Numbered from the stretch's first letter, positions 4,276 through 21,121 are shown. The stretch is 45,753 nucleotides of DNA from an uncultured virus (IMG/VR IMGVR_UViG_2061766007_003026) (IMGVR_UViG_2061766007_003026); one strand, 5' to 3'. Numbers and translations: made by a program. The notes: generated from the sequence alone by a model not told the origin.

Positions 4276-4461
4276 GTTATTGTATGTCTTCCCAGGAGTC
4301 GTTCCTGAGCTGATAGTTGATTTCCGGGATGGTCACCTCGTCGTGCTCCGTGTAGCAGTGGTCGTCACCCAAATCTACTTAAATCTATCGGCCGTTTGAT
4401 AACTTTTAGGTTGACATTCAGTATAAAATTTTGTACATTATTATAAACTTAATACAGATAG

Positions 4462-4561
4462 GTTCAATGAATTAGTGGCTTTCTTCATTGAACGACAATG
4501 AGAGACCATTTATGATGGCTCGTTTGATGCTGAAAGCCACAAAAAGTATCGAACGAGCCAT
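4462..4561 (+). promoter_or_regulatory. Two-hairpin kissing-loop leader RNA upstream of tnpB
   Basis: Hairpin-1 loop GTGGCTTTC is complementary to hairpin-2 loop GAAAGCCAC. Confidence 0.7.
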
Positions 4562-4572
4562 TTCTGTATTGT

Positions 4573-6546
4573 ATGAGCAAGCACTGTTGGACCTTGAAGG
4601 ATAAGTTTGAATCGTTGTTCTCCGCTGCGTTCTATCCTATGTTTTTGTCCGACACGAAGCGAGATGAAATCATCCACCGTGCTGAGGAAATTCGTGCAGT
4701 CCGCAACGACATATCGGAGATATTTTTCTCGGATATGCTCGGCTTCCAGGATATGAGCAAGTTCGAGGCGTTCAACTTCTTTAATCCGACATTCAATACA
4801 AGGCTGTCTAGTCACTACTTGAAGAAGGCAATCGAAGATGTATGGAGGGCCTATCAGCTCCGGTTCGATGCCATCCGCAAGAAGATTGAGTTCGTCAAGG
4901 TAGAAGAACTTGTACCATCGTTCTACAAGATAAATACCAAAGGGCACAAGAAAGGCGACCTTAAATCCATAGAACGGCATACCAAGAAGACAGAACTTAC
5001 GAAGGTACTGACTTGGCTTGCCCGTTACGGCAAGGATGAAACCGTCTATTGGCTTGAATCCGTCATTCCGACCGCAGTAGAAGCAAAACGGAAGTTCTAC
5101 AGAATAATCCTTGAAAAGATACACCGGTTCGGTTTCGACCGCCTCATGCGGTTAGCTCTCTCGCGACGAACTGCTGTATTTTCCGAATACGAGAAGAGGG
5201 GCAAGATTACCTTTGAGTCGCTCTCCTTCAGCGGAAGAAGCCGTATCANNNNNNNNNNTCAAATTCTACCACTTGTAGATTGTTGTAGATTTCTGTCAAC
5301 GGTCGATAGCCAAGGTGGTCACGGCAGCGGACTGAAAATCCGACTATGTAGGTTCGGTTCCTACTCCTCCCACTATGCACCATTAGCTCAGTTGGTTTTA
5401 GAGCAGATGCCTCTTAAGCATCGGGTCCAAGGTTCAAGTCCTTGATGGTGCACTAACNNNNNNNNNNTTGAAGTATCATGGGATTGGGATGACCAAGGTT
5501 ACCGTGGTGACAGCAAGAACACGTTATGTATTCCTTTCAAGTACAACAAGGCATACCACCGTTCATTAAACCGCTATTGTAACGGACGTGATACAACCTA
5601 TACTATGGTTGTTAGAGGCAAGGATATCCATGTAGTTCTCGCCCGTAACGGCTACCGCTATAAGAATACTGNNNNNNNNNNAGTCCGAGGAAAGGACATC
5701 CATGTAGTCCTCGCAAGGGACGGCTACCGCTATAAGAATACTGACGAGATTACCGAAGAAAATACCATTGGAATTGATGTAAATTCCAAGCACAACATGT
5801 TCGCATTGAGTACGGGTGAGTTCATCCCGAACGATGATGCCTTGATTGCCGACCTAGAAACCGAACTGCTCAAGATAGACCAGAAACAGAAGAACTACAA
5901 TGCCCGGTTTACCAAGGACGATGAACATGATGCGTTCAAGATTTCCAAGAAGGACAAGACTTGTATAGTGGCTATTACGAACAAATTGAACGAGTCTAAC
6001 AAGCGGACTATCGCTAACCTCTGTAAGACATTTGCTACTAAGGGAATCAAGCACATTGCAATGGAAAACCTTGACGGTTTCCAAGGGAGCAGACTCCATG
6101 CTGATGATTCAAAAGGATTTAATCTGGGAAGGTTGCATCTAAGGACTGGACTGTCCTCATTGAAGGACGAATTCATCCACATTGCGCCTCATTACGGACT
6201 ACTTGTATCGCTTGTACAGCCCGATTATACTTCGAAGATGTGTGGCGAGTGCGGTTGTATCGACGACCGGAACCGCCAGACACAAGAAGAATTTTACTGT
6301 GTTGAATGCCATCATGCGGAGAATGCCGACATTCATTCAGCCAAGAATATTAAATTCCGCCTTACCTCGACCGTGTTAAGAGGGAACCTGCTCGAAAGAG
6401 CAGGGGATAGCGGATATAGGTACTTCCAGCCGAAGAGCTTGTCCAGGTGGCAAGTAAGGACGTGCCTAGAAAAATGCCGTTGCGATGGATTGTTTAAACA
6501 GTCCGTAGAAAATCGTTCAATTCTTACGATGAGTAAGTTTGTGTAG
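4573..6546 (+). CDS. tnpB: TnpB-family RNA-guided nuclease (split by assembly gaps: 4573-5248, 5468-5671, 5682-6546)
   Basis: RuvC-I IGIDVN, RuvC-II IAMENL, YTSKMCGECG...FYCVECH zinc finger, RuvC-III NADIHSAKNI. Confidence 0.88.
5259..5302 (+). mobile_element. Right end of a second, related IS607-like element abutting tRNA-Phe
   Basis: TGTAGATTGTTGTAGATTTCTGTCAACGG resembles TGTAGATTTTAGGCAACGG at 6542-6560. Confidence 0.55.
5300..5372 (+). tRNA. tRNA-Phe(GAA) with a mismatched acceptor stem
   Basis: Loop CT-GAA-AA, D and T arms present; acceptor CGGTCGA/TCCTCCC has 3 mismatches; trailer CTA. Confidence 0.65.
5377..5452 (+). tRNA. tRNA-Lys(CTT)
   Basis: Canonical cloverleaf; trailer CTA. 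Confidence 0.92.
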
Positions 6547-6675
6547 ATTTTAGGCAACGGTCTCCTTGATGACCTTACTGATGTCCAGCTCGTCGGAATT
6601 TCTGTTTCGCGATGTCGTCGAATACCGCCTGGTCCTCGGGTGTCACCGGGTTCATCGTTTTCACGTCTTTCTTCA

Positions 6676-6996
6676 TCAAAAATCATTCTCGCAGGTAAAT
6701 GTGAACTGCTTCTGGGAAAACTCCCCGGAACGCACCGAGACCAGCTTGGACTTGTTTTCCTGGATGAGGTACATATCTCGGCATTTCCACTGCACTCCGC
6801 TGCCGAAGAAATCGGTGTCATAATTGCAGCGTCCATTTACCGAAAGCTGACTATTCTTTTCAACACCTTTCTGGGCGAAATGCGCAAGTGTGTCACCGCT
6901 GCTGATATTGATGATTACGAAATCCGTGCAACGGGTAGCGGACGATACCGCATAAGCGGCCAATAGGCCAATGATAATTTTCTTGATTGTCTTCAT
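6676..6996 (-). CDS. Hypothetical secreted protein
   Basis: Signal-peptide-like N-terminus MKTIKKIIIGLLAAYAVSSA; promoter motif at 7017. Confidence 0.7.
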   Translation of the reverse strand: MKTIKKIIIGLLAAYAVSSATRCTDFVIINISSGDTLAHFAQKGVEKNSQLSVNGRCNYDTDFFGSGVQWKCRDMYLIQENKSKLVSVRSGEFSQKQFTFTCENDF

Positions 6997-7054
6997 ATTT
7001 ATGTTCCTTGTTTCTACAAATATAGCAAAAATGCCCGGACGGCGCCGGGCTTGC

Positions 7055-7309
7055 TCATTTCAGTTCTTTAAGAAGGGGGCATCGGTTGGGAATATCGAAC
7101 TCCCATTCGTATTTCGCCTGGGTCCTGCACCGGTTCTTCCCGTGGGAAGTTTTTTCAACCTCGTAGCTCGCGGTGTTGATGTTGAAGTTCCCCAGTCCGC
7201 AATACTGGCGCCACGAGTGGCCACCCTTGCCCCGGTCGGTTTCACGGAAATGGGGGCACTGTTCGCACCCGGTTATCCCGAACTTTCGCTTTATTTCTTC
7301 CTTGGTCAT
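7055..7309 (-). CDS. Small Cys-rich hypothetical protein
   Basis: CEQCPH...C...IPNRCPL pattern; ATGA overlap with the upstream gene. Confidence 0.7.
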   Translation of the reverse strand: MTKEEIKRKFGITGCEQCPHFRETDRGKGGHSWRQYCGLGNFNINTASYEVEKTSHGKNRCRTQAKYEWEFDIPNRCPLLKELK

Positions 7310-7623
7310 CCTGATATCCTTTCTTCGCTATTTTCGGTTTCGGCAACTATTGTGACGGATAGATACGGCATCATTACCACGCCAGTATTGACAATACCTC
7401 CTCTGTAAGGTTTTCCCTTGTAGGTTACTAGAGCAACATCTGGCTTGGCGTAAATGTCCGAATAGAGTTTAATCCGGGCTTCCTCGGGAAGATTCCGCAT
7501 ATCATCCAGTGTATGCGTATCTTCGCATCGCGTTTTGCACAGTATACGGCGAATGAAATGCAATGATATTGCAACGTAGCATGCAATGTATATATCTTCC
7601 AGTGTATTTTTCATTGTACACAT
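7306..7623 (-). CDS. Hypothetical protein
   Basis: 105-aa ORF coupled to 7055..7309. Confidence 0.55.
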   Translation of the reverse strand: MCTMKNTLEDIYIACYVAISLHFIRRILCKTRCEDTHTLDDMRNLPEEARIKLYSDIYAKPDVALVTYKGKPYRGGIVNTGVVMMPYLSVTIVAETENSEERISG

Positions 7624-7660
7624 ATGAAGAATTCATCCAATATTTTAATTNNNNNNNNNN

Positions 7661-7684
7661 CCGGTTCAAGTCCGACTTGGGAGA
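7661..7684 (+). tRNA. tRNA 3' fragment (5' part in gap)
   Basis: T-arm CGG-TTCAAGT-CCG plus acceptor strand; trailer CTA. Confidence 0.6.
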
Positions 7685-7696
7685 CTACAAAGGACT

Positions 7697-7729
7697 ATGA
7701 ATATGAAACGAAAATACAAACGATTATGA
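7697..7729 (+). CDS. 10-aa mini-ORF MNMKRKYKRL upstream of tRNA-Lys(TTT)
   Basis: AAGGA RBS; same length, position and CGA-TTA-TGA ending as 19769..19801. Confidence 0.6.
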   Translation: MNMKRKYKRL

Positions 7730-7759
7730 TGGTGACAACTGCCTTACCAGTTGCTAAAT

Positions 7760-7831
7760 GCGAGCTTAGTTTAACTGGTAGAATAGTGGACTTTTAATCC
7801 TCGGATGTGGAATCGTTCTCCGCAGCTCGCA
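7760..7831 (+). tRNA. tRNA-Lys(TTT), atypical T-loop ATCGTTC
   Basis: GCGAGCT/AGCTCGC acceptor, loop CT-TTT-AA. Confidence 0.85.
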
Positions 7832-7835
7832 CTTT

Positions 7836-7906
7836 GTACCTATATTGTAGTGGTAACAAGGCGGTCTTCCAAACCGCAATCGCCAGTTCGAACCTGGCTA
7901 GGTACT
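7836..7906 (+). tRNA. tRNA-Gly(TCC)
   Basis: Cloverleaf, U73; trailer CTA. Confidence 0.88.
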
Positions 7907-7915
7907 CTAATTTAT

Positions 7916-8000
7916 AGCTCTGTGGCGGAATTGGCAATACGCGGCGCACTCAAAATGCGTTGTCCGAAAGGACATGTGGGTTCGACTCCCACTTGAGCTA
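7916..8000 (+). tRNA. tRNA-Leu(CAA)
   Basis: Long variable arm, loop CT-CAA-AA; trailer CTA. Confidence 0.9.
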
Positions 8001-8009
8001 CTATTCTAT

Positions 8010-8093
8010 CGGCATGTGGAGTAACTGGTAGCCTCGCTAGATTCAGAGTCTAGTGGCCGAAAGGCCGTGAGGGTTCAAGTCCCTCTTTGCCGA
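8010..8093 (+). tRNA. tRNA-Leu(CAG)
   Basis: Long variable arm, loop TT-CAG-AG. Confidence 0.88.
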
Positions 8094-8135
8094 CGCTTTT
8101 ATAAGAAATGAAATAATTTAGGATATATAAACTGG

Positions 8136-8236
8136 TATATAGAACGGCTTGGTGGAACTCGTCGCTCTATACAAAACGAATTTTAGATGTCCTCGGTGTA
8201 TGCAGAGTTCCACAATATTGCTATACCGAGGACATT
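8136..8236 (+). promoter_or_regulatory. Two-hairpin kissing-loop leader RNA upstream of a homing endonuclease
   Basis: Loop GTGGAACTC pairs with loop GAGTTCCAC; homolog at 20978-21072. Confidence 0.75.
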
Positions 8237-8252
8237 CTTTATTGAGGTTTGT

Positions 8253-9437
8253 ATGTCTGCATCAAAACCATGTAATTGTCCTAAATGTGGAGCCCATTTT
8301 GAAAGTATATCTGCTATGAATCGGCATCGCATTGCGGTGCATGGTTTAAGTAAAATTGCTCAGAAGCCGTATAGTTGGGAATGTCCGATTTGCCATATAT
8401 TATGTAAGACATCCGCAGAATTACGTCGTCACCGTCCTACTGTACATGGAAAATATTGTTACCAGAGTAAATCTAGTAATGGTAGTTCGTTGCCTACATG
8501 GGCGTGTAAATATTGTGGCATCATAGTTAATTCTCGGCGTAAATTGTATGAGCATTATAAGGAATGTATTGAAAAGGAAAAACAACCGACCGATTCACGT
8601 GGTCGAGTTATTAATTATGACGGGTTACGTAAAAGTCAAGAAACTAAAAAACAACGCAAGGCATTAGGCGTATATAAACCACGCCTCGTATCAACGAGTA
8701 CAAGAGCTAAATTACGTGATTGTAGAAAGCAATATTTAGCAACCCATCGAGTTAAATATAATTGGACTGGACCACTAAATACATTAAGTTATGCAGAGCA
8801 ATATTTTTATGATATTGTTGAGAAGCGGTGCAAATTTATTCATTGGGTAAATAATTTACGTATCAGTTATTATAAATTGGATTTTGCAAACCTTGATACT
8901 AAAGTCTATTTTGAAGTTGATGGCGAACAACATTATGATGAATATGGATTATATCATGATAAGCAGCGTACCGAACGATTAGAACAATTTGGGTGGAAAT
9001 TAATTGGCAGAGTGCGATGGAAGCTGTTTTCTCGGTTATCTGACATTGAAAAACATGCATATATTGATACACTATTGAATGCCTTTATGTCGAATGAATA
9101 TCATACGATTGACTCATTACATGATTCTCCGACAGTTATTACGTCTAAACGGCAATTACAACATGCCCAACAACTCGCACAAGCTACACTAGAAGGCCGA
9201 GTTGATAAAAATGGGCATATACTTGGTAATGCTAACAGTATGGATGAATGGGTTCGTCGGAAGAATTTAATATTAACGTGTGGTGTTGATATTTCTAAAT
9301 TTGGGTGGGTTGAAAAGGTTATACGGTGTACTGGATTAACTAAACGAATGATTGAAAATACCTTAAAGAAATTTAATAAAGAATTTGATGGTAAATATTT
9401 TAGGCGTAAATATAATCCAGTTGACTGCAAACCATAA
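8253..9437 (+). CDS. Free-standing homing endonuclease: C2H2 zinc fingers plus DUF559/Vsr-like PD-(D/E)xK domain
   Basis: Three CxxC(...H) fingers; LDF...FEVDGEQH...R...GWKL motif; AT-rich; GAGG RBS before ATG 8253. Confidence 0.8.
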   Translation: MSASKPCNCPKCGAHFESISAMNRHRIAVHGLSKIAQKPYSWECPICHILCKTSAELRRHRPTVHGKYCYQSKSSNGSSLPTWACKYCGIIVNSRRKLYEHYKECIEKEKQPTDSRGRVINYDGLRKSQETKKQRKALGVYKPRLVSTSTRAKLRDCRKQYLATHRVKYNWTGPLNTLSYAEQYFYDIVEKRCKFIHWVNNLRISYYKLDFANLDTKVYFEVDGEQHYDEYGLYHDKQRTERLEQFGWKLIGRVRWKLFSRLSDIEKHAYIDTLLNAFMSNEYHTIDSLHDSPTVITSKRQLQHAQQLAQATLEGRVDKNGHILGNANSMDEWVRRKNLILTCGVDISKFGWVEKVIRCTGLTKRMIENTLKKFNKEFDGKYFRRKYNPVDCKP

Positions 9438-9454
9438 ATGAACTATATTTATTT

Positions 9455-9503
9455 TGAGCCGTGGTGCAATTGGTAGCACGCAAGATTTTGAGTCTTGATG
9501 TTG
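9455..9503 (+). tRNA. tRNA-Gln(TTG), 5' part (3' end in gap)
   Basis: D-arm and CAAGA-TT-TTG-AG-TCTTG. Confidence 0.8.
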
Positions 9504-9513
9504 NNNNNNNNNN

Positions 9514-9788
9514 CGTAGCGCGTTACCGCCGTTGTTTTCCCTTGTGCGGGAAAATCTTATCGAAACGCAAAATCCCGTGACTTATCCGGTACGGGAACCC
9601 GCCAGCACCTTACGATACCGGGAAACCCGGCACCCCGCCATATTGTACCTTAGGCGAGTCTGGAGCCTTGTAACCCTAAGGGGTGTCAGGCTGATGCTAC
9701 GTCCGGGAGCGTCCTCCCGGCTGGTCCTCAAACTTTGTCCCGTGCGTTGATTTAGCGCTCGCTTGCCGGCCTAGCAAGCCTATCAGGG
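9514..9788 (-). ncRNA. Central part of the large structured ncRNA candidate
   Basis: Overlaps 2541-2644 and (inverted) 10834-10882; shares a ~120-nt module with 16502-16641. Confidence 0.55.
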
Positions 9789-9798
9789 NNNNNNNNNN

Positions 9799-9990
9799 AG
9801 AGATATGCACTTGGTCCCGGGCTTTATTCCTCTCGCTTGACCCAGGCAACGACGTGCTACCGATTAAGCAGCAGCGGCGTAGGCGAATGCATTGTCAGCA
9901 TTTATCTTTTCGGTCCGTTTTTACGAAGCCACAGACCAACTTCGTGTGAGGTCTCCACAGTCCGATGCCTAGTCGAAACCAAGCACCCCC
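9799..9990 (-). ncRNA. ssrA: tmRNA, 5' half (allele; tag ADNAFAYAAAA)
   Basis: GGGGGTGCTTGGTTTCGAC start, resume context ATAAAT-GCT, tag ending AA-stop. Confidence 0.9.
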
Positions 9991-10007
9991 CGAAGAGATT
10001 TGCTTCA

Positions 10008-10079
10008 TCGGAGTAGCCGGATTCGAACCGACGACATTCTGCTCCCAAAGCAGACGCTCTACCAGGCTGAGCTACACTC
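10008..10079 (-). tRNA. tRNA-Pro(TGG) (first 2 nt in gap)
   Basis: Loop TT-TGG-GA, canonical arms. Confidence 0.88.
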
Positions 10080-10188
10080 NNNNNNNNNNACAGGGTAGCG
10101 TTTTTCCGATTTGCGCCAAAGTTAAACTGTAACTTCTGCCAATCACTTCATCGGGAAGCGATACATGGAACGCCTGCGCTACAAAATT

Positions 10189-10265
10189 GTGGCACTGAAA
10201 TCGAATCAGCAACACACGACTCCACCCATAGGGATATGCCGCCGCTCTACCATTGGCGTAACCAC
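10189..10265 (-). pseudogene. Degenerate tRNA-like element
   Basis: D-loop CAATGGTAGAGC and T-arm GCTGA-TTCGATT-TCAGT present; 5-bp acceptor, no canonical anticodon loop. Confidence 0.45.
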
Positions 10266-10322
10266 TTTCACGCCGGGGTTCCATGATTTGCAATGTTCCC
10301 CGCGCGCCGGGGAACACTACAC

Positions 10323-10643
10323 TTATTCTGGCGCCCTCACCAGGGTGCCTAAATTGCATCTGCCATGTTTCTTAGCAATCGTCTCCAGGCAGGCATCCCA
10401 CCTGCTGTCGCCGACTACCGAGGAAATCGACCACGCCCCGCAATCAGGGTCGTAATTCATGTCCTCCGTCAAGTATAGCTTGCACGACATGTTCGGGAAC
10501 GTACGCATCATGTTCTCGAACGCGACCATTTCCGCATACACGTCAGCGATTTTCGCCAGGTCGACGGACTCGTATACCGTATAGTTCACGCGCTTCTCGT
10601 CCTGGTAGAGTATCGCGTAATGTCTAGTCTCTTCGTTATCCAT
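10323..10643 (-). CDS. Hypothetical protein (allelic fragment at 10893-11069)
   Basis: 106-aa ORF; second copy nearly identical, mostly synonymous changes. Confidence 0.75.
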   Translation of the reverse strand: MDNEETRHYAILYQDEKRVNYTVYESVDLAKIADVYAEMVAFENMMRTFPNMSCKLYLTEDMNYDPDCGAWSISSVVGDSRWDACLETIAKKHGRCNLGTLVRAPE

Positions 10644-11072
10644 ATACTAAATCCCCTTGTTCTGCGGTCCCGCCAGGCTGTGCCTCTGCATCTCCGCCCT
10701 GGGCCTGTACATGTTGAGNNNNNNNNNNTGCAAATCGGAAAAACCCTACCGTGAAGTGGTGAAAGACATAAGCCATGTAAAGGTAGTTAGTTTGGCAGTG
10801 AGATGCTAGGTGGGAAAACTGCCCGTCACGGTCCCCTGATAGGCTTGCTAGGCCGGCAAGCGAGCGCTAAATCAACGCACGGNNNNNNNNNNGGTCAAGT
10901 ATAGCTTGCACGACATGTTCGGGAACGTATGCATCATGTTCTCGAACGCGACCATGTCCGCATACACGTCAGCGATGCTCGCCAGGTCGACGGACTCGTA
11001 TACCGTGTAGTTCACGCGCTTCTCGTCCTGGTAGAGTATCGCGTAATGTCTAGTCTCCTCGTTATCCATTTA

Positions 11073-11366
11073 CTAAATCCCCTTATTCTGCGGCCCCGCC
11101 AGGCTGTGCCTCTGCATCTCCGCCCTGGGCCTGTACATGTTGAGTTCCTTCAGTGTCTTCTCCAGGTCGGAGAACTTGCATTCGACAGAAGCGTTCCCGC
11201 TGGACGTCACCGTGGCGACCTCGCGCTTCATGTCGTACTTAATCCAGGTAACCTCCCCGGTCTCCGGGTTCACGTACCTGGTACTCTCCAGTTCCGACGC
11301 GTGCATGCCCTCGAGGTACCCTTCAACGTACCGGAACTTCCACACGGCAAATACCGATAAATCCAT
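11073..11366 (-). CDS. Hypothetical protein; homolog of 13117..13413
   Basis: WKFR[YF][VI]EGYL...CKF..LEKTLK.L.MYR...RHSLAGPQ shared; GAGG RBS. Confidence 0.8.
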   Translation of the reverse strand: MDLSVFAVWKFRYVEGYLEGMHASELESTRYVNPETGEVTWIKYDMKREVATVTSSGNASVECKFSDLEKTLKELNMYRPRAEMQRHSLAGPQNKGI

Positions 11367-11597
11367 ATAACTACCTCGTTTCGAGTTTATCCAGTGTCGG
11401 CCCGGCTGCCCGCCTCCTGGAGGGACTCCGTTGCAGGCGCTACCGCCGCGAATCTACTGGTGCCCTCATGGCCTTTCGACTTGTCGGCGACGTCTCTACC
11501 TACGCGACGGTGCATCCTGCCGGTATTTCCCCGGTTTCCCGGCGGGCGGCCGGAAAGAATGCGGATACAGGCGGGGATTCCCGGGAGTATCCGGTAG

Positions 11598-11670: not shown

Positions 11671-11675
11671 ATATA

Positions 11676-13534: not shown

Positions 13535-13545
13535 TTATGTCTTAG

Positions 13546-13796: not shown

Positions 13797-13806
13797 GAAA
13801 CAGTAG

Positions 13807-13880: not shown

Positions 13881-13894
13881 AAAATTCCTGTTAG

Positions 13895-13971
13895 TGTCAC
13901 GGGGTGGATTCGAACCACCATCTCATGCCGGCTGCAGTCCAGGCATGCGCTACCAGTTAAGCTACCGCAAC
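13895..13971 (-). tRNA. Non-canonical tRNA with extended anticodon arm (loop ACTGCAG)
   Basis: Acceptor GTTGCGG/CCGTGAC, D-loop and T-arm present, ATGCC(T)GG-ACTGCAG-CCGGCAT; trailer CTA. Confidence 0.65.
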
Positions 13972-14019
13972 GTGGTGGGAACGGCGATATCCTAGCTTCT
14001 AGAACGCGTCATCGCCCGG

Positions 14020-14510
14020 TTCCCTCTCGGTGTCCTTGCAGGGACTGTACTCATTCCGCCGATGCGGAAACCATCCGGCTCACTCCCAACCGGCTAGGCC
14101 ACTGTAACCAGTGTGGCCAACGGGTCCTTAATGCTCCACGTTACCAGGACGTAGCCGCACTCTGTCTTGTTTTACGTCGTTTCGACGGGCGCACCCGACG
14201 TCGGAACTTGCCGGTGCATACCCGGCTCGTCCCTAATGGGCTCCCGCAATTTAAACCTAGGCTAATCACGGGTACACCCAAACTAGAATCTCGACGGCGC
14301 ATTACTGGACTATCCTTGACGCATTCCCAGCCTCTATACGCAACTTATGCTACTGCACTAGCCCCAAAGGATATACCTGCACGGGCTTACTTACCTCATC
14401 TCCGTCGAGACTTTTCAAACACACTCCCGGATATAGTGCCGGGCTATCACTTTACGCCACGAGGCCGGTACGCGGTCCTCGTTGCAACCCTTGCCCCGAA
14501 AGGGAGGGAA
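14020..14510 (-). ncRNA. OLE-like large structured RNA
   Basis: Closing stem TTCCCTC/GAGGGAA; ordered motifs AAGTCT, GTAAGTA, GTAGCAT, GTTGCGT, GGAATG, GGATAGTCC, TAGGTTTAAA recalled from the OLE 5' half; covarying allele at 15236-15548. Confidence 0.6.
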
Positions 14511-14517
14511 TGAAAAA

Positions 14518-14605
14518 TGGTGGTGCGGCTTTTTTCACGCCACTTAAGCCCACAGCACTGTTGCTAGCATTGTCGTGCCGGGTAGTTGCCAGCTACCATC
14601 TCACC
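14518..14605 (-). ncRNA. Small multi-stem RNA family A (also 15103-15171, 15560-15642, 15651-15720)
   Basis: Covarying 5-bp stem with 7-nt C[CTA]G[AG]CA[AC] loop in four copies. Confidence 0.6.
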
Positions 14606-14611
14606 ATGTAG

Positions 14612-14685
14612 TCGGAGTAGCGTGATTTGGACACGCGACCCTCGGTTCCCAAAACCGATGCTCTACCAGGCTGAGCTACACTCCG
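14612..14685 (-). tRNA. tRNA-Pro(TGG), T-loop TCCAAAT
   Basis: Loop TT-TGG-GA; trailer CTA. Confidence 0.88.
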
Positions 14686-14817
14686 GAAACCGCACGGGTC
14701 AGCCGTGTTAACCCGTCACGGCCTTTAGAGCGCCCCCGAATAGATTTGCGCTTTCTACCGGAGATATCGCGGTACTTACTCCGGAAACCCCGGTGGCTAC
14801 ACCAGGGAAATATCATC

Positions 14818-14892
14818 TGCCCCAGACCGGGGTCGAACCGGTAACCACCACCTTCGGAGAGTGGTACTCTAATCCAATTGAGCTACCGGGGC
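14818..14892 (-). tRNA. tRNA-Arg(CCG)
   Basis: Loop CT-CCG-AA. Confidence 0.88.
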
Positions 14893-15235
14893 TAAATTCT
14901 AGGTACCTCCCGGAGACAACCGGGAGGAACCACGGCGTTGCCTCCAGTGCAGGACTGGCGCATACCGCCAAGCACGTCCGCCTCCCGGTGTCCACATGGA
15001 ATCACCGGTGGCGTCAAGGGTTTGCCCGGTTGTCCCCGGCCGGGCGCCGGGAGCCTCCCGGTTGGCCCNNNNNNNNNNTACCCCGAAAGGAAGGGAATGA
15101 AAGACGCCGTCCTTTTATGACGTTTGGACGATTGGCTTGCGCCAAGAAGCTTGTCGGGCTCCATTCCGCGTAATTTAGTGGAGGTGAGGGGAGTCGAACC
15201 CCTGTCCTAAACGCCATTCCGTTTCNNNNNNNNNN

Positions 15236-15548
15236 GGGACTTTCCGGTGCATACTCGGGTCGTCCCTAATGGGCTCCACGCAATTTAAACCTAGGCTAAT
15301 CACGGGTACACCCAAACTAAGAGTCTCGCCGGCGCATTACTGGGCTATCCTTTACGCATTCCCAGCCGCTATTCCGCAACTTATGCTACTGCACTAGCCC
15401 CAAAAGGATATACCTTGGACGGGCTTACTTCCATCATCTCCGGCGATACCATTTAAACACACTCCCGGTTATAGTGCCGGGCTATCACTTTACGCCTCGT
15501 GGCCGGTACGCGGTCCGCGTGGCAACCCTTACCCCGAAAGGGCGGGAA
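15236..15548 (-). ncRNA. Second allele (5' part) of the OLE-like RNA
   Basis: Colinear with 14203-14510, with compensatory substitutions. Confidence 0.6.
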
Positions 15549-16022
15549 GAAAAAGAAAGTGGCGCGACTTTTTATGACGTTTGGCCCATTGTACAGTCCG
15601 CTAGCAGTGGAGTACAAGGAAATTGTCGGTTTCCATCTCGCCTTGTATAAGACGCTGTCCTTTTATGACGTTTGGACGATTGGCTTGCGCCAAGAAGCGT
15701 GTCTGGCTCCATTCCGCGTAATGTTGTCGGGGATACCGTTACTACGTGGGTTTCAACGCCACACGGCGTCCCCTGTGTCCCCGCACGGAGTAGTAGTCCG
15801 ATGGAGGAGCAGTAATGTTGTCCCCTGCCTTCGCGGACACCGGAACCACTCGAAACCGTATGTCCGTTCTACCCGTGCTGAAAGGGCGGTCCTACCGGCA
15901 GCAGGACTTGAAAATTAGTGCATGCCCGCGGTCCACCTTCATCCGCCAGTATTTAGTCACCCCGGACGTGACAATGGGCTCAGGAGCATCGGGAATGACC
16001 CGTACTCACATGCATGCAATAG

Positions 16023-16381
16023 TGGAGGTGAGGGGAGTCGAACCCCTGTCCTAAACGCCATTCCGTTTCAACCGTATCACAATCCATCGTTTTGGGCCCT
16101 GACCTGTTGCCCGGGGAGATGTATCCTTGAGGGGTCCTGGTCCAGTGTAAGATAGCCGGTCTACGACCAGTAACTCACGGCTAAATTCGGGACTTATCTA
16201 CTTGGTCCCGGGCTTTATTCATCCCACTTGGCCCGGGCAACGGCGTGCTACCGATTAAGCAGCAACGGCGTAGGCGAATGCATTGTCAGCATTTATCTTT
16301 TCGGTCCGTTTTTACGAAGCCACAGACCAACTTCGTGTGAGGTCTCCACAGTCCGATGCCCAGTCGAAACCAAGCACCCCC
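16023..16381 (-). ncRNA. ssrA: tmRNA, complete (tag ADNAFAYAVAA); 3' fragment of another allele at 15179-15225
   Basis: GGGGGTG/CACCTCC acceptor with G3:U70 and A73, T-loop TTCGACT, internal tag ORF; trailer CTA. Confidence 0.95.
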
Positions 16382-16387
16382 GAAGAG

Positions 16388-16460
16388 CTCCGGCTCGCCG
16401 GCTCGAACGGCGGACCCCATCATTACGAATGATGTGCTCTACCAACTGAGCTAAGCCGGA
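16388..16460 (-). tRNA. tRNA-Thr(CGT)
   Basis: Loop TT-CGT-AA. Confidence 0.88.
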
Positions 16461-16646
16461 AAAAGGTTCCGCTCACACACCCGGAGAGCGGAAATCCGTC
16501 CGCACCATACGATACCGGTGTTGCCCGGCACCCCGCCATATTGTACCTTAGGCAGGTCGGAACCCGTATAGCCGCTTTTTGCTACCAGGGGAGGTAACGG
16601 CGTCAGGGTGGAGCTACGTCCGGGAGCGTCCTCCCGGCTGGACTGG

Positions 16647-16820
16647 TGACACAGGCCCCGTATTTTGATGTTCGCGGGAAGTACCTGAACCTGGATGCAG
16701 AACAAGCGGCCTTGCTTGCGTCAACCCTTCTAATGATATTGGCGCATGCCCCGGTTCTTGATGTTCGAGCAGGAAGTACCTGAACCTGGATACATGTACA
16801 AGCGGCCTTGCTTGCGCCAA
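16647..16820 (-). repeat. Two tandem ~80-nt structured RNA units (family B)
   Basis: Shared core CGCAAGCAAGGCCGCTTGT...ATCCAGGTTCAGGTACTTCC...CGAACATCAA; terminal stems GGCGCA/TGCGCC vs GACGCA/TGTGTC. Confidence 0.65.
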
Positions 16821-16832
16821 AAGTTTCTGTAG

Positions 16833-16908
16833 TGTCCCGGACAGGATTCGAACCTGCGACCTCCACCTTCGGAGGGTGGCACTCTGAATCCGGCTGAGCT
16901 ACCGGGAC
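16833..16908 (-). tRNA. tRNA-Arg(CCG)
   Basis: Loop CT-CCG-AA; trailer CTA. Confidence 0.92.
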
Positions 16909-16920
16909 TTAAAATAAGAT

Positions 16921-17169
16921 GCGTACCCGGGAAGTAAGTCAACCATCAAACGAGGAACTTCGTTTGGGCACGCAAATTCGTGTACGCGGATTGGCACCAA
17001 TCATCAACCCACAACGAAGAATACGTCCGGGTACACAATAAAAACGACACTGGCGGTAAATCGGTGTTGCAGACCAAGCTTCAGATAGGAACCGCCTTGG
17101 TGTCTAAAAAGCGGGCGCGGGGAGTAAGTCACTGATGTTGGAAGTTTCAATAGGAACTCCCTTTGCGCC
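16921..17169 (-). repeat. Three ~55-nt stem-bulge-stem RNA units (family C: 16921-16973, 17046-17104, 17114-17169)
   Basis: Stem-[AC]AA-stem(GT)-TCCT...GA[CT]TT-(AC)stem, stems differ in sequence but pair. Confidence 0.6.
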
Positions 17170-17178
17170 TAAAAGTAT

Positions 17179-17461
17179 GACACAGCCGTCTCCCGCGAGA
17201 ATCACGCCGGGCCTTCCGTGACTTTCGTTAATTCCCCGTCACGGGTCGGCCCACGGGATTTCATGTTCGGCCGTTACCCTAGAGCACATACCGGAAACAG
17301 GGACTGAGTCCACCAGCTTCCGGAGACCACCTTCTCTATGCCGCCAAGTGCGTCCTAACACATGGCATCATTTTTGCTGACCCCCGTAGAGCGTCCGCCG
17401 GAAAATTATCCGGCGGCAGGAACATGCTCTCGGGCGGTTCGCCTCCCCGGGCGACTGTGTC
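17179..17461 (-). ncRNA. ~283-nt structured RNA candidate
   Basis: Closing stem GACACAGTCG/CGGCTGTGTC, multiple internal hairpins, no credible ORF. Confidence 0.5.
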
Positions 17462-17480
17462 TTTAAAGGTTTGCCGTCCC

Positions 17481-17570
17481 AATCTACGGCCGGAATCGAA
17501 CCGGCGTCTCCCGGCCTGGTTAGCCGGGCGCTCTGACGAGGCCTCGTCCACCTTGCTAAGCTACGTGGCC
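17481..17570 (-). pseudogene. tRNA-like element with a hairpin inserted in the D-loop, enlarged anticodon loop and broken acceptor
   Basis: TAGCTTAG...AGAGC, GACGAGGCCTCGTC insert, T-arm GCCGG-TTCGATT-CCGGC. Confidence 0.5.
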
Positions 17571-17694
17571 ATGGGAACGGCGGTCATTTTCTATAGGTAC
17601 CAAACGGTTTTGCTGGTGCGTCGGGGCCCTAATCCGAAAATGACTTAATAGCGCCGCGCCGGGGACGTCTCCCCGGCACTTCCGTCGCAATCAA

Positions 17695-17770
17695 CAGGAC
17701 AGAACCGGACTCGAACCGGTGTCCCGGGTTGTTTCCGCCCGAGCTCTACCTCCTGAGCTTACCCACCCAG
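17695..17770 (-). pseudogene. Degenerate tRNA-like element
   Basis: AGCTCAGGAGGTAGAGC and ACCGG-TTCGAGT-CCGGT intact; G:U-rich acceptor, 9-nt anticodon loop. Confidence 0.45.
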
Positions 17771-17793
17771 TCTTAGCGACGGCAAAATCATAG

Positions 17794-17898
17794 TTGCCAA
17801 ACCAGGACTCGAACCTGGACGCCCTTTCGCGCGAGGACCGGGGACTTGCATTCCCCTGCGTCTAACGGCATCGTCGATGCACTTTCCGCCATTTGGCA
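17794..17898 (-). tRNA. Leu-type tRNA body with GCA (Cys) anticodon and a D-loop hairpin insertion
   Basis: Perfect acceptor TGCCAAA/TTTGGCA, A73, long variable arm, GGGGA-AT-GCA-AG-TCCCC; trailer CTA. Confidence 0.7.
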
Positions 17899-17974
17899 AT
17901 GAACAATAACGCAGGTCCCCAGTGTTCCCAAAGGTGAACGTCGGAACAACCGGGGGCCTGGTTTGAAACTATAG

Positions 17975-18047
17975 TAGCGGGAGTCGGACTCGAACCGACG
18001 ACCTCGAGGTTATGGGCCTCGCGAGCTACCAACTGCTCCATCCCGCG
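17975..18047 (-). tRNA. Initiator tRNA-fMet(CAT)
   Basis: C1:U72 mismatch, CGCGGGATGGAGCAG start; trailer CTA. Confidence 0.9.
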
Positions 18048-18057
18048 ATAAATATCG

Positions 18058-18130
18058 TAGCGATGCCGGGATTCGAACCCGAGTTCCAGGAATGAAAATC
18101 CTGTGTCCTAGGCCTCTAGACGACATCGCC
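18058..18130 (-). tRNA. tRNA-Glu(TTC)
   Basis: Loop TT-TTC-AT. Confidence 0.9.
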
Positions 18131-18446
18131 ATGCGAACGGTGTGAGCGGGACGGGGGACCTCGATACAACCAAAAAGGAGAAGGGTAATGGAACTAACCC
18201 TATACATCCGCCCGTCCCGGCTCACGCCGAACTCATTAGTTAATTTCCCTTGTCTTCCTGAGCAGAAGACACCTCCCGGTTGCGAACCCGGGCGCACTCA
18301 CGTTTATGCTAAAGGTATCTCACTACGCCAAGTGCGTAGCTTCGGGCGGGAAGCCTCCCGCCGGGGTAAGATTTCGTAAAACCTTCAAAATGCGAGTGGA
18401 CTATCGTTGTCCACAACGCGCAGTTTAACCTGAACTGCAAAGGAAA

Positions 18447-18490
18447 CGCATCCGAACTGTCAATCTTCTGGGGAACCTCACGGGCTTCCC
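18447..18490 (-). promoter_or_regulatory. Hairpin + AGATTGACAGTTCGGATGCG element (second copy 21657-21700), boxB/boxA-like
   Basis: 20-nt exact repeat 3' of hairpins of unrelated sequence; this copy lies just downstream of the promoter at 18498. Confidence 0.5.
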
Positions 18491-18629
18491 GGTGTACCAA
18501 ATATAGCAATTTTCTGCGAAAACGTCAACCTGGTGGTTTTTGTTTATATCTTGGTACGATATTCTTGCTAACCAAATATAGCAAAAATCGACCCGAGTGG
18601 AGTCCTTTCTGCTAAACCTGGTCAAATAG

Positions 18630-18703
18630 AGCACTCGGAGGGACTCGAACCCCCGCATGGGGGCTTTGCAGGCCCCCGCCTTAATCCACTTGGCTACGAG
18701 TGC
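18630..18703 (-). tRNA. tRNA-Cys(GCA)
   Basis: U73, loop CT-GCA-AA; trailer CTA. Confidence 0.92.
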
Positions 18704-18709
18704 GTATAG

Positions 18710-18791
18710 TGTCGGGAACAGGACTTGAACCTGCACGAGTTTCCCCACTGGCCTCTCAGACCAGCGCGTCTACCAATTCCACCACCCCGAC
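18710..18791 (-). tRNA. tRNA-Leu(GAG)
   Basis: Long variable arm; trailer CTA. Confidence 0.92.
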
Positions 18792-18801
18792 ATATCCCGG
18801 G

Positions 18802-19239
18802 TCATCCCCGGAAAAGCTGGTACTTTCTGCTGAGTGCATGGCTCACGTCGTCCGGCAGCGGCCTAAACCATATACCCACCCTACAGTAGCCGTTGCCGTT
18901 CTCGTCGGTCGACTCCGGGGTAAGCTCGGTAAGACACGCGTCGTCTATGAAGCCGTAGTCTGCATCCTTGACAAGGCCGAGTTCCTTGGCGACTTCCTCC
19001 ACCTTCATGAGGTGGGTGAGGTTCTTCGCCTCGCACACGGTCTTCACGAACAGCCCGCGGACATACTCGTCCATCGTGGCTGAATCCAGTTCGAACTTGA
19101 CGGAGTATGAGTCGCCTTCCTTCGTCGCACTTCGGGAGATGAGGCGTGTCCAGAAACCTTCGGCGCAATGGGCTACCATCGCCGAAAGCTTACCCTTGGA
19201 CAGGTCCAGGTCCTTGCGAATTATGAAGAGTCTTCTCAT
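18802..19239 (-). CDS. pth2: Peptidyl-tRNA hydrolase, Pth2 family
   Basis: IIRKDLDLSKGKLSAMVAH, KTVC, IDDACLTEL, GIWFRP...YQLF match Pth2 motifs; GGAGGA RBS. Confidence 0.88.
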   Translation of the reverse strand: MRRLFIIRKDLDLSKGKLSAMVAHCAEGFWTRLISRSATKEGDSYSVKFELDSATMDEYVRGLFVKTVCEAKNLTHLMKVEEVAKELGLVKDADYGFIDDACLTELTPESTDENGNGYCRVGIWFRPLPDDVSHALSRKYQLFRG

Positions 19240-19258
19240 ATATCCTCCGATGTCTTAG

Positions 19259-19340
19259 TCCCGCAGGCAGGACTCGAACCTGCACACCTTTCGGCATGCG
19301 CTCCTAAGGCGCACGCGTCTACCAGTTCCGCCACTGCGGG
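19259..19340 (-). tRNA. tRNA-Leu(TAG)
   Basis: Long variable arm, loop CT-TAG-GA; trailer CTA. Confidence 0.92.
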
Positions 19341-19343
19341 ATA

Positions 19344-19414
19344 TTGGCCAACCAGGTCTCGAACCCAGCCCTGGTGACTCAAAATCACCCGTGCTACCGC
19401 TACACCATAAGCCA
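19344..19414 (-). tRNA. tRNA-Gln(TTG)
   Basis: U1:A72, loop TT-TTG-AG. Confidence 0.85.
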
Positions 19415-19418
19415 ATTA

Positions 19419-19492
19419 TGGCGACACCAAGACTCGAACTTGGAACCAACAGATTAGAAATCTGTCGCTCTAATCCATTGAGCTATGCCGTC
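19419..19492 (-). tRNA. tRNA-Arg(TCT)
   Basis: Loop TT-TCT-AA. Confidence 0.88.
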
Positions 19493-19502
19493 AATCGTTT
19501 AG

Positions 19503-19578
19503 TCCCCGGAGAAGGAATCGAACCTTCAGATGTCGGCGATTTTGAGTCGCCCGCCTATGCCAGTTCGGCTACCCGGGG
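19503..19578 (-). tRNA. tRNA with CAA (Leu) anticodon but short variable region
   Basis: GGCGA-CT-CAA-AA-TCGCC; variable region only GACATCT; trailer CTA. Confidence 0.8.
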
Positions 19579-19584
19579 ATGATA

Positions 19585-19656
19585 AGCGAATATCCGACAA
19601 CGATTCGGAAACTACAGCTTGGAGGGCTGTCGTGTTGCCAATTACACCATATTCGC
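19585..19656 (-). tRNA. tRNA-Gly(TCC), C33 and T-loop ATCGTTG
   Basis: GCGAATA/TATTCGC, U73, loop CC-TCC-AA. Confidence 0.8.
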
Positions 19657-19660
19657 ATAG

Positions 19661-19732
19661 TGCGGGTGGGGAATTTCGAAATCCCGACCCACGTATTAAA
19701 AGTACGTTGCTCTTCCTCTGAGCTACACCCGC
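19661..19732 (-). tRNA. tRNA-Lys(TTT)
   Basis: Loop CT-TTT-AA; trailer CTA. Confidence 0.88.
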
Positions 19733-19768
19733 AGAGTGCAGTTGATAAGAGCATGGCAACTGCAACCA

Positions 19769-19801
19769 TCATAATCGGGTGCGTTTAAGAATCTTCTTCA
19801 T
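19769..19801 (-). CDS. 10-aa mini-ORF MKKILKRTRL upstream of tRNA-Lys(TTT)
   Basis: AGGAGGT RBS; counterpart of 7697..7729. Confidence 0.6.
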   Translation of the reverse strand: MKKILKRTRL

Positions 19802-19816
19802 CGTGTGTACCTCCTA

Positions 19817-19900
19817 TCGGCGATATCGGGCTCGAACCGATACGCACGCAAGTGCCCCGGATTTTAAGACCGGGTTGTCTACCTATTCCAGCAATCGCCG
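19817..19900 (-). tRNA. tRNA-Leu(TAA)
   Basis: Long variable arm, loop CT-TAA-AA. Confidence 0.88.
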
Positions 19901-19913
19901 GAGTTTCCGTTAG

Positions 19914-19993
19914 TCTCGACGGCAAGACTCGGACTTGCACGCATATGCACCGGCTCCTGAAGCCGGCGGGTCTACCAGTTCCCCCACGTCGAG
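19914..19993 (-). tRNA. tRNA-Leu(CAG), T-loop TCCGAGT
   Basis: Loop TT-CAG-GA; trailer CTA. Confidence 0.85.
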
Positions 19994-19997
19994 ATAG

Positions 19998-20960
19998 TTA
20001 AATAATTCTATTAGATTTTCGCCGATGCACCACCGACTTCAACTCATCAAAATGTTCAACAGTTTTATATATTTGCTGACGAGTCAAATCAGTGGTAGCG
20101 GCCACTTTAGACACCCATCCGGGTTTAGTCAAATCAACACCACTATTGAGTATTTTATTCTTTCTGTTATTCCACTCGGCTTTGGTTAATTTTCGAACGC
20201 AATCCCAGCCTAAAACGTTTTGTTCAACACCCAGCTGACGTCTCCGTTGCTTAGCTTCTTCAAGGCGTTCTTTATGGGTTTTGTATAGCGGAACAGTTAT
20301 ATCACCGCATCCAGATAAAAATTTGTCCAACATCGCCTCAAATTCTTGCTTATGAGTCAGTATATATCCCCATTTTATCCGTAATACTAGCCAACCGTCG
20401 TTATGTAACAACTTATCCTTCTTCTCATCGCTTTTTTGCTGTTTCTCATATCTATGCAAATCACCATCGAGTTCTATACACAAGCGTTTATCTGGCCACG
20501 AAAAATCTAGGTAATAACCATGAAAGGGCAATTCGGTCTTATAGTCTACATTCTCAGTCCATCCATATTTATTGAATAACAGCCCAATTAGCCACAACTC
20601 TGGGTATGAATGCTTAACGTATTTTCTATTCTGATACGATGGAGCAATCCCTAATTCATGACGTCGTTTCATCCGTTCAGAGCATTTAGCACGAAATTCG
20701 GGTGTTTGTGTAAATCCTCGACTTCCGGGTTTATTCGGCTTTCTATTGGGGTTATGTTTACACCGTAATTCGTGATTTGCAATGCCACTCTTAGTCGTAT
20801 TCCAGGTAGTTCCACAATATTGACACGTCCGGGCAGCAATTACACATGCCACTGTTTTTCCATCAATGTGATGACAATCTAGCTTATGTTGTTGTAATTG
20901 TCGACGAGATTTTAAAATTTCTTGACAATACGGGCATTTCCATTCATAATGTAATCTCAT
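19998..20960 (-). CDS. Free-standing homing endonuclease (zinc fingers plus DUF559/Vsr-like domain); homolog of 8253..9437
   Basis: YLDF...IELDGDLH...D..L...GWLVLRIKW; shared C-terminal W..RKN.IL..GVD..K.GWV.KV domain. Confidence 0.8.
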   Translation of the reverse strand: MRLHYEWKCPYCQEILKSRRQLQQHKLDCHHIDGKTVACVIAARTCQYCGTTWNTTKSGIANHELRCKHNPNRKPNKPGSRGFTQTPEFRAKCSERMKRRHELGIAPSYQNRKYVKHSYPELWLIGLLFNKYGWTENVDYKTELPFHGYYLDFSWPDKRLCIELDGDLHRYEKQQKSDEKKDKLLHNDGWLVLRIKWGYILTHKQEFEAMLDKFLSGCGDITVPLYKTHKERLEEAKQRRRQLGVEQNVLGWDCVRKLTKAEWNNRKNKILNSGVDLTKPGWVSKVAATTDLTRQQIYKTVEHFDELKSVVHRRKSNRII

Positions 20961-20977
20961 AATAAACCCCAATAAAG

Positions 20978-21072
20978 AATGTCCTCAGTATAGCAATATT
21001 GTGGCACTCTGCATATACCGAGGACATTAAACTTTATCAAGATTAAATTGCGAGTGCCACCTAGCAATCTAA
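20978..21072 (-). promoter_or_regulatory. Two-hairpin kissing-loop leader RNA
   Basis: Loop GTGGCACTC pairs with loop GAGTGCCAC (compensatory relative to 8136-8236). Confidence 0.75.
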
Positions 21073-21121
21073 TAGTAGTTTATATAGCCAAATATACATA
21101 ATATTATTTCGAAAGTCAATA

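Follow-up and report, generated by a model that had tools for sequence, protein, structure and literature searches.

Introduction

Homing endonucleases and TnpB proteins cut DNA, and the phages that carry them must keep such nucleases in check. To our knowledge, nuclease restraint by leader RNAs has until now been known only from gene-specific hairpins of T-even phages. The genes of I-TevI, I-TevII, I-TevIII, segB and Aeh1 mobE are under translational control (PMC2988022). As described there, a single hairpin in T4 buries the ribosome-binding site and holds the late promoter inside it, with late transcripts escaping, and in seg43(25) of Aeromonas phage 25 a very stable hairpin lies just 5' of, not over, the ribosome-binding site (PMC2988022). 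Here we report a structured leader RNA that occurs three times (W1, W2 and W3) in a 45,753-nucleotide stretch of DNA from an uncultured virus (IMG/VR IMGVR_UViG_2061766007_003026), hereafter the window. In each leader two hairpins, H1 and H2, can pair through their loops directly upstream of a mobile nuclease gene.

The leaders of the window resemble those of the T-even phages in combining an apparent late-type promoter with a stable RNA structure just 5' of a selfish endonuclease gene, where restraint is presumed (PMC2988022); here, too, the selfish nuclease gene stands directly 3' of the leader. The layout differs, however, in that the promoter lies 5' of two loop-paired hairpins, both of which belong to the promoter's own transcript, and in that the copies before TnpB genes have no Shine-Dalgarno sequence in their tail. 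Moreover, one homologous family extends across unrelated nucleases and different phage groups. The hairpin of seg43(25), to go by its description, is single and has no loop-loop partner. The leader is a real and probably hitherto undescribed RNA family, and a new structural form of leader-RNA control of selfish phage nuclease genes; new here are its association with many TnpB lineages, the placing of the promoter 5' of both hairpins, the terminator-like H2, and the distant members that precede small open reading frames (ORFs).

Three leaders of one design

The three leaders share a fixed order of elements, namely the word TATAAACT, the short hairpin H1, a spacer, the long hairpin H2, a U-rich tail and an ATG (Table 1). 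The two loops are exactly complementary over nine nucleotides, which lie on the 3' side of the H1 loop (L1) and on the 5' side of the H2 loop (L2), and the central triplet of this loop code varies by copy, being CTT, AAC and CAC in the three copies of the window. H2 has a stem of 14-17 bp and a loop of at least 13 nt, and the linker between H1 and H2 measures 15-25 nt. An earlier note on this DNA, made by reading the sequence alone, had described this architecture, with a 9-bp loop pairing each time, at three sites, and all three are present as it stated.

When folding was compared with that of shuffled sequences, the z-scores were -5.7 for W1, -4.5 for W2 and -5.7 for W3, and none of 200 shuffles folded as well. 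Inverted repeats of 9 nt at such spacing number 14 in the window, as compared to 7.7 +/- 3.6 in simulated sequence, so that a lone repeat of this kind is not rare. Since a single 9-nt pair is not unusual, the case rests on the repeated register of the pair within homologous hairpins and on the comparative covariation data given below.

The 5' foot of H2 (window positions 8187, 4512/4515 and 21027) is an AUG that pairs with a CAU at the 3' foot in most copies of the phage clade that uses TATAAACT, the rumen jumbo phages. A conserved upstream ORF starting at this AUG was rejected, because the AUG shares the reading frame of the downstream gene in W2 (ORF 8187-9437) and, by reading, does not do so in W1 and W3.

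Table 1. Positions in the window of the leaders, their hairpins, the putative promoters and the genes behind them
Feature	Position	Strand	Remarks
W1 leader	4442-4575	+	by reading of sequence; ATG at 4573
W1 sigma-70-like promoter	4411..4439	+	TTGACA-17-TACATT; consensus match only (10/12); just 5' of the W1 late-type promoter
W1 putative late-type promoter	4442..4449	+	TATAAACT
W1 H1	4462-4471/4484-4493	+	10 bp, 12-nt loop; L1 GTGGCTTTC 4475-4483
W1 H2	4515-4531/4545-4561	+	17 bp; L2 GAAAGCCAC 4532-4540; U-rich tail 4562-4572
Long TnpB-like gene behind W1	4573..6546	+	frame interrupted ~5249-5469; TNB domain in C-terminal part
W2 leader	8126-8255	+	by reading of sequence; ATG at 8253
W2 putative promoter	8126..8133	+	TATAAACT
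W2 H1	8138-8148/8161-8171	+	L1 GTGGAACTC 8152-8160
W2 H2	8187-8204/8219-8235	+	L2 GAGTTCCAC 8205-8213; tail TCTTTATTGAGG holds Shine-Dalgarno sequence
C2H2 zinc-finger + DUF559 (Vsr-like fold) endonuclease behind W2	8253..9437	+	394 aa; DUF559 2.6e-07; zf-C2H2_4 8.4e-07
W3 leader	21084-20958	-	by reading of sequence; ATG at 20960
W3 putative promoters	21077..21119	-	sigma-70-like TTGACT-17-TATATT (21119-21091) and TATAAACT (21084-21077)
W3 H1	21071-21064/21051-21044	-	L1 GTGGCACTC 21060-21052
W3 H2	21027-21014/20992-20979	-	L2 GAGTGCCAC 21009-21001
Zinc-finger + DUF559 endonuclease behind W3	19998..20960	-	320 aa; DUF559 1.6e-09; relative of W2 protein

Covariation in 35 related leaders

Altogether, 35 related leaders were gathered from viral, metagenome and genome contigs. 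A search of viral contigs for the loop-2 motif gave the first relatives (5 loci), after which a model, R1, was built from six leaders; it retrieved a further copy before an intact 454-aa TnpB, with the new loop pair GTGGAAGTC/GACTTCCAC. Pattern scans were then run in which the loop flanks GTGG..TC/GA..CCAC were fixed and the central triplet was left free, a design that partly builds in the conservation of these flanks. On viral contigs, the promoter-anchored pattern matched 41 times, and the model-positive leaders were exactly the 14 matches with Watson-Crick-complementary triplets; the remaining 27, which lay outside the model run, resembled coding sequence. The promoter-free pattern gave 24 matches on viral contigs, 13 with Watson-Crick triplets and one with a G·U pair, of which four were new and model-positive and ten repeated confirmed leaders.

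On metagenome contigs there were at least 119 matches, including at least 19 with Watson-Crick and two with G·U triplets, and at least 15 confirmed members, all of them complementary; among the matches listed, L104, L134 and L177, despite their complementary triplets, had no model match, and neither had L149 and L156. L208 was rejected as a member, having a complementary triplet but forming a plain long hairpin. Cellular genome contigs yielded at least 120 matches (at least five Watson-Crick and one G·U), and L293, from a Muribaculaceae metagenome-assembled genome, was the only member among the matches listed. Four further complementary-triplet matches (L263, L269, L300 and L319) were judged by eye to be non-members. 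When five more large contigs were scanned with a second model, R2, three copies emerged that had been beyond the reach of the patterns and in which the flanks themselves covary: GTGGTATTT/AAATACCAC, GTAGGATTT/AAATCCTAC and ACTGGCATTC/GAATGCCAGT.

The final alignment has 36 rows, comprising 35 sense-strand leaders (two decayed remnants included) and one antisense row of W1; loop 2 of L347 is partly misaligned in it. Paired positions hold complementary bases in 94.6% of cells, as compared to 61.9% in shuffles and 37-41% when the partners are slid. Double-sided changes occur in 10/10 pairs of H1 and 15/15 pairs of H2, counts that lean towards the H1/H2 model to which the alignment was fitted, and in five of the nine pairs of the loop-loop helix, which lies outside that model and is paired in 99.7% of cells. 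Among the loop pairs tabulated, 14 are fully Watson-Crick, one more contains a G·U, and one carries a single mismatch in a decayed remnant. The element is therefore a covarying kissing-loop RNA made of H1, H2 and the loop-loop helix. The proposal that the loops keep pairing by compensatory changes is thus confirmed across 35 leaders, and so is the view that one homologous structured RNA stands before unrelated mobile nucleases.

The earlier note had also taken the stems of the tnpB leader to be wholly different from the others, which holds for H1 only, as H2 of W1 aligns with the other copies. With a model built from all six sequences W1 scores 109 bits, and it is a diverged homolog of the W2 and W3 leaders.

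G·U pairs are frequent in the stems and one is found in the loop-loop helix, and the opposite strand scores 23-26 bits as compared to 105-109 bits for the sense strand, a 4-5-fold difference. The frequent G·U pairs and the strand-asymmetric score indicate an RNA that is read in the sense of the gene. The hairpins are of course also inverted repeats in the DNA, and could in principle serve there as a protein-binding site or a cruciform. We give this reading almost no credence, since each G·U pair becomes an A·C mismatch on the other strand, the model score depends strongly on the strand, and both the orientation and the spacing to promoter and start codon are fixed.

A late-type promoter word upstream of the RNA

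Late promoters of phage T4 carry the motif TATAAATA, and T4 transcription starts ~6 nt after the promoter word. The word TATAAACT resembles this motif and stands upstream of H1 in every clade copy; ATAAACT, which had been listed as an element of the RNA, belongs instead to this word. TATAAACT occurs five times in the window, with 0.82 occurrences expected, and the two copies outside the leaders stand 15-30 nt before ordinary start codons, one of them following a terminator-like hairpin (by eye). In G002, a 355-kb, 93%-complete relative, 46 of the 58 copies are followed by an ORF of at least 60 aa that starts 10-42 nt 3' of the word, the background rate being 0.15. Among one-base variants in this genome, a change appears to be tolerated at the first base only (GATAAACT, 9/13; AATAAACT, 3/5), with the other variants at or near background rate in small counts. 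PHROG matches were found for nine of 43 scanned genes behind TATAAACT, namely two terminase large-subunit pieces, a baseplate wedge, a head closure protein, a virion protein, an amidase, an HNH endonuclease, a TnpB and a starvation-type regulator. By its distribution, TATAAACT behaves like a T4-late-type promoter of this phage clade, with a predicted transcription start. The leaders behind it are ~20 nt long in ordinary genes and 102-118 nt long in the nuclease genes.

The sigma-70-like promoter of W1 is kept in most relatives that have the long-TnpB leader. Repeated AAATCTAC(C)TAAA-like words followed by this conserved promoter precede TATAAACT in most long-TnpB leaders; such words are seen at 4350-4410 of the window and upstream of L049, L020, L034, L044 and L180.

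The presence of sigma-70-like promoters directly 5' of W1 and W3 recalls the timing switch of T4. In a switch of this style, RNAs that read through from upstream promoters or tRNA operons would block translation by an extra helix joining the promoter region to the start region, and RNAs started at TATAAACT would lack the 5' strand of this helix and be translated late. Indeed, the promoter-region RNA of W2, GGAUAUAUAAACU, can pair with GGUUUGUAUGUCU over the Shine-Dalgarno sequence and AUG (-17 kcal/mol, z -3.8), and a AAUACAGA/UCUGUAUU helix is possible in W1 (-12.7 kcal/mol, z -1.9); a mechanism of this kind is documented for I-TevI, I-TevII, I-TevIII, segB and mobE (PMC2988022). However, such a closing helix reaches z <= -3 in only one of 20 leaders and is no better than in shuffles in 18 of the 20. 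In addition, the promoter lies 5' of both hairpins in all clade copies, the spacer holds no tolerated TATAAACT variant, and W2 and W3 contain no sigma-70-like site inside. We consider a timing switch of this type improbable. A promoter inside the leader is likewise unsupported in this clade, the only inside site being a 9/12 sigma-70-like match in W1.

Unrelated nucleases behind the leader

Throughout the TATAAACT clade, each complete leader examined is followed by a mobile nuclease gene, with the exception of two decayed remnants, and the distance from leader to start codon is fixed at 10-25 nt. The nucleases include TnpB proteins of at least six lineages (the long one of W1 in eight or more contigs, proteins of 454, 376, 438 and 417 aa, and one starting MIVRSSSH), several zinc-finger/DUF559 endonucleases and a 349-aa DUF7487 protein.

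Rfam 15 covariance models, run over the whole window at gathering score, returned only tRNA and tmRNA. Nothing relevant was found in 4300-8400 at E<=10, with IS605-orfB-I/II, HEARO and self-cleaving ribozymes included, or in four distant members at E<=1. The earlier suspicion that the leader lies outside named families is borne out by these searches, as neither IS605-orfB nor HEARO matched at E<=10. Full-text literature searches on phage homing endonucleases, TnpB and kissing leaders likewise gave no description of such a leader. In public phages, megablast of 4300-9500 and tblastn of the N-terminal part of TnpB gave no match, and tblastn of the W2 endonuclease retrieved only Rhizobium-phage and uncultured-phage endonucleases of 27-31% identity. 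A locus search with the W3 endonuclease protein gave one marginal locus, L006, which has no leader. In the nearest record, G001, the model detected no leader, and reading confirms that none stands before the long TnpB or before the endonuclease of the tRNA island.

Omega RNA, IscB/HEARO RNA and the IS605-orfB motifs are likewise structured RNAs genetically linked to TnpB- or HNH-type nucleases. Omega RNAs lie across the 3' end of tnpB and the right end of the transposon, and end in the guide; the leader described here lies 5' of tnpB, also occurs before protein-only endonucleases and small ORFs, and has no guide-like variable end. A role as RNA partner of the nucleases, which the earlier note had offered, or as their guide scaffold would fit the link to so many TnpB lineages. 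It is at odds with the protein-only endonucleases that share the leader, with its presence before only a minority of TnpB genes (ten of 16 lack it), with a close relative that has the same TnpB and no leader, and with distant members that precede small non-nuclease ORFs. The two complementary loops within one RNA also recall the packaging RNA of phi29, and copy-specific triplets like those of the three window copies could suit a unit whose loops pair between molecules; a linker of the length seen here should, however, let the loops pair within one molecule. We regard both the partner and the packaging-RNA-like readings as very improbable.

Several bases are conserved beyond the need for pairing, namely UUAG/UUGG before L1, GC(A/U)GA before L2 and CCACAAWA after L2. 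These might point to an operator, in which the kissing domain would be bound by the nuclease itself (autoregulation) or by a shared RNA-binding protein of phage or host; I-TevI is indeed an autorepressor, though at the DNA level (PMC2988022). The sharing of one leader among TnpB, zinc-finger/DUF559 and DUF7487 proteins and small ORFs argues against autoregulation by each product. Furthermore, the search patterns make these bases look more conserved than they are and no candidate protein emerged, so that we see only a slim chance for an operator.

A proposed portable cassette that may limit nuclease output

Similarity between zinc-finger/DUF559 leader copies begins ~10-12 nt 5' of the promoter (AATTTAGGA) and the sequences diverge beyond this point (by eye). 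In most long-TnpB copies it reaches at least 40-90 nt further 5', through the sigma-70-like promoter, and in two of them it starts at TATAAACT itself. These limits fit a cassette composed of promoter, leader and gene. Copies L045 and L052 (contigs G005 and G002) have an identical leader and identical C-terminal 60-odd residues, with differing N-terminal zinc-finger regions, a pattern that suggests recombination among cassettes. In sequencing runs, 19880 and 21151 are joined on a contig from a relative, which passes over the W3 leader, the endonuclease behind it and one tRNA; this is no evidence that they are absent.

Hints that expression is limited come from the terminator-like tail after H2 and from the start region behind it. 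The 8 nt that follow H2 contain 4.55 T on average, as compared to 2.64 expected (31 unique leaders, with related rows), and this tail resembles by eye that of the terminator-like hairpin at ~31941-31962 of the window. Intrinsic terminators and attenuators, and small RNAs that end in a terminator, share with the leader a strong hairpin with a U-rich tract and the layout of 5' hairpin, linker and terminal hairpin; here, in contrast, the loop of H2 takes part in a 9-bp tertiary helix and is at least 13 nt long, and the hairpin stands only 10-25 nt before a start codon. The gap between H2 and the ATG is 10-13 nt in TnpB copies, whose single-stranded tail lacks a Shine-Dalgarno sequence, and ~18 nt in zinc-finger endonuclease copies; in the zinc-finger/DUF559 copies part of the Shine-Dalgarno sequence is predicted to be paired in a basal extension of H2. 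Compared with ordinary late genes, the leaders as a whole do not differ in Shine-Dalgarno strength (p 0.45, or p 0.056 for the TnpB subset).

In our judgement there is about an even chance that the conserved, uncatalogued 5' leader RNA and the phage promoter together form a portable expression cassette that limits the output of selfish nucleases. Transcription would start a few bases after TATAAACT, so that in most classes H1 would begin with the first base of the message or only a few bases behind it. The L1-L2 helix would lock H1 and H2 into one compact domain, with the kissing helix closing the large loop of H2. H2 and its U-tract may then act as an attenuator at which many transcripts end, and in the transcripts that read through, the stable H2 would abut or cover a weak or absent Shine-Dalgarno region, so that few ribosomes start. 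The structured domain at the 5' end may also protect the message from decay. Limitation of the nuclease in cis is what we infer from the fold, which is observed and covaries, from the strand on which it forms, from its place between promoter and ATG, and from its association with nucleases.

If this reading is true, a single portable module of promoter and RNA serves RNA-guided as well as protein-only nucleases across rumen jumbo phages, with relatives in Bacteroidales-type phages, and selfish genes share a common control cassette. The compact two-hairpin kissing domain with its natural covariation should be of use to structural biology; it is a candidate for a new Rfam family, and with it one could test how a terminator-like hairpin behaves when a tertiary helix closes its large loop.

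Predicted accessibility speaks for this reading, as the median unpaired probability of the start region is 0.32 in 15 leaders and 0.55 in the 48 ordinary late genes used as a control (Mann-Whitney p 1.8e-8), but this test sets leaders of 100 nt against leaders of 20 nt and its rows are related, so that the control is crude and the p-value overstated. A number of observations weigh against the reading. A simple terminator scan called no terminator at W1, W2 or W3, and a loop of at least 13 nt is beyond that of typical intrinsic terminators. The effects on transcription start, termination and translation are all predictions, and the near-invariance of GTGG/CCAC and TC/GA is in part a search artefact. 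The leader stands before six of 16 TNB-domain TnpB genes (on five related contigs) and is missing from the other ten. Another TnpB and an HNH endonuclease of G002 are driven from TATAAACT with leaders of 19-25 nt, and in G001 a long TnpB, the same as that of W1, overlaps an upstream ORF and has no leader. The leader is thus not obligatory for these nuclease genes. At the W3 site, G001 has a different HNH endonuclease, also without a leader.

Further points of this kind come from distant members and from the nrdG locus. The distant members, from Bacteroidales-type phages, precede ORFs of ~41-110 aa, without family matches where these were looked for, and L083, which has a sigma-70-like promoter, shows no ORF start for ~120 nt after the RNA. 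With members before small ORFs or before none, the function may not be specific to nucleases, and L083 may stand alone. Upstream of nrdG, two relatives keep the leader yet lack the DUF7487 endonuclease, and the 1026-bp insertion/deletion that separates the alleles starts directly behind H2 and its T-run, so that the leader does not in every case belong to the mobile unit. In these endonuclease-free alleles it is decaying, having a TATAACT promoter, a mismatch in L1 or a lost 5' half of H1, which suggests that the leader is kept only while a nuclease follows.

The same observations bear on the possibility that the RNA is a small RNA gene with a function in trans, for example the binding of a phage or host protein, behind which nucleases settle for its promoter and as a homing site. 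The element is laid out like a bacterial small RNA, with a 5' hairpin followed by an A/U-rich linker and by a strong hairpin that has a U-rich tail, L083 has a promoter of its own with no gene close behind, the Bacteroidales-type copies precede unrelated ORFs, and the nrdG alleles retain the leader with the indel starting at its very end. On the other hand, decay in those alleles suggests that the RNA is not kept for its own sake, all complete jumbo-clade copies examined abut a nuclease start codon at the fixed distance given above, and among the pattern matches listed for cellular genomes only one of 120 was a member. We consider a small RNA gene unlikely, if worth keeping in mind.

A broader form of this idea, to which we assign a rather low probability, is that the leaders make up a phage RNA gene family in their own right, consisting of promoter, 5' hairpin and terminator hairpin with a private kissing code, that has been colonised repeatedly by nucleases. 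TnpB and protein-only homing nucleases would settle just behind its terminator, using its conserved DNA as a landing site; promoter and terminator read-through would provide a ready-made switch for low-level expression, and copy-specific triplets would keep co-expressed copies from cross-pairing.

The distant members follow a TAnnTTTG word, which we take to be the Bacteroidetes promoter motif. In L127, L199, L179 and L293, all of Bacteroidales type, the leader is followed by a small basic peptide, 41-43 aa long where complete (MAKK...G.F.T.EYA.KHPKTTVKE.RP...), and a different small basic ORF lies behind that of L158. In L083 (1480-1700, minus strand), a segment ~60 nt 3' of H2, CCACGAAGUUUGACC, complements the 5' arm of H1 and the start of L1. 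The minimum-energy fold of this single sequence prefers this pairing over H1, which could point to an alternative structure.

The genes of the window and their surroundings

The tnpB gene behind W1 contains two tRNA genes (5300-5372 and 5377-5453), with ~225 nt replacing 57 nt (19 codons) of intact relatives; masks of 10 N at 5249-5258 and 5458-5467 hide the exact insertion junctions. Apart from an in-frame TGA at 5443-5445, the frame stays open on either side of the insertion, and the C-terminal part of the protein aligns with intact TnpB. Further 3', a tandem duplication of ~54-65 nt (5608-5672 and 5682-5745) around an N mask encodes the peptide VRGKDIHVVLAR(N/D)GYRYKNT twice, where relatives have one copy.

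In a metatranscriptome run, a contig covers 7829-9503, and the W1 leader and gene start (4300-4865) are uncovered; with DNA carry-over possible and no ends to be seen in contigs, this is no evidence of transcription either way. DNA sequencing runs that contain the window sequence come from ruminant gut samples.

The window belongs to a large phage and forms a tRNA island in it. It carries 38 tRNA genes (1300-25700), several anticodons of which are duplicated, and a tmRNA (16020-16381, minus strand; tag ADNAFAYAVAA, 103.6 bits). Its G+C content is 52% overall and 37-46% around the nuclease genes. An HNH-type homing endonuclease gene (21924-22775, minus strand; phrog_655, 6.9e-31) adjoins the W3 cassette, and the model search detected no structured leader before it. 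The NAD-dependent DNA ligase appears as two ORFs, 26195-27154 and 27302-28519 (both minus strand), which cover profile positions 8-383 and 375-638 of 656, with N masks in the gap between them.

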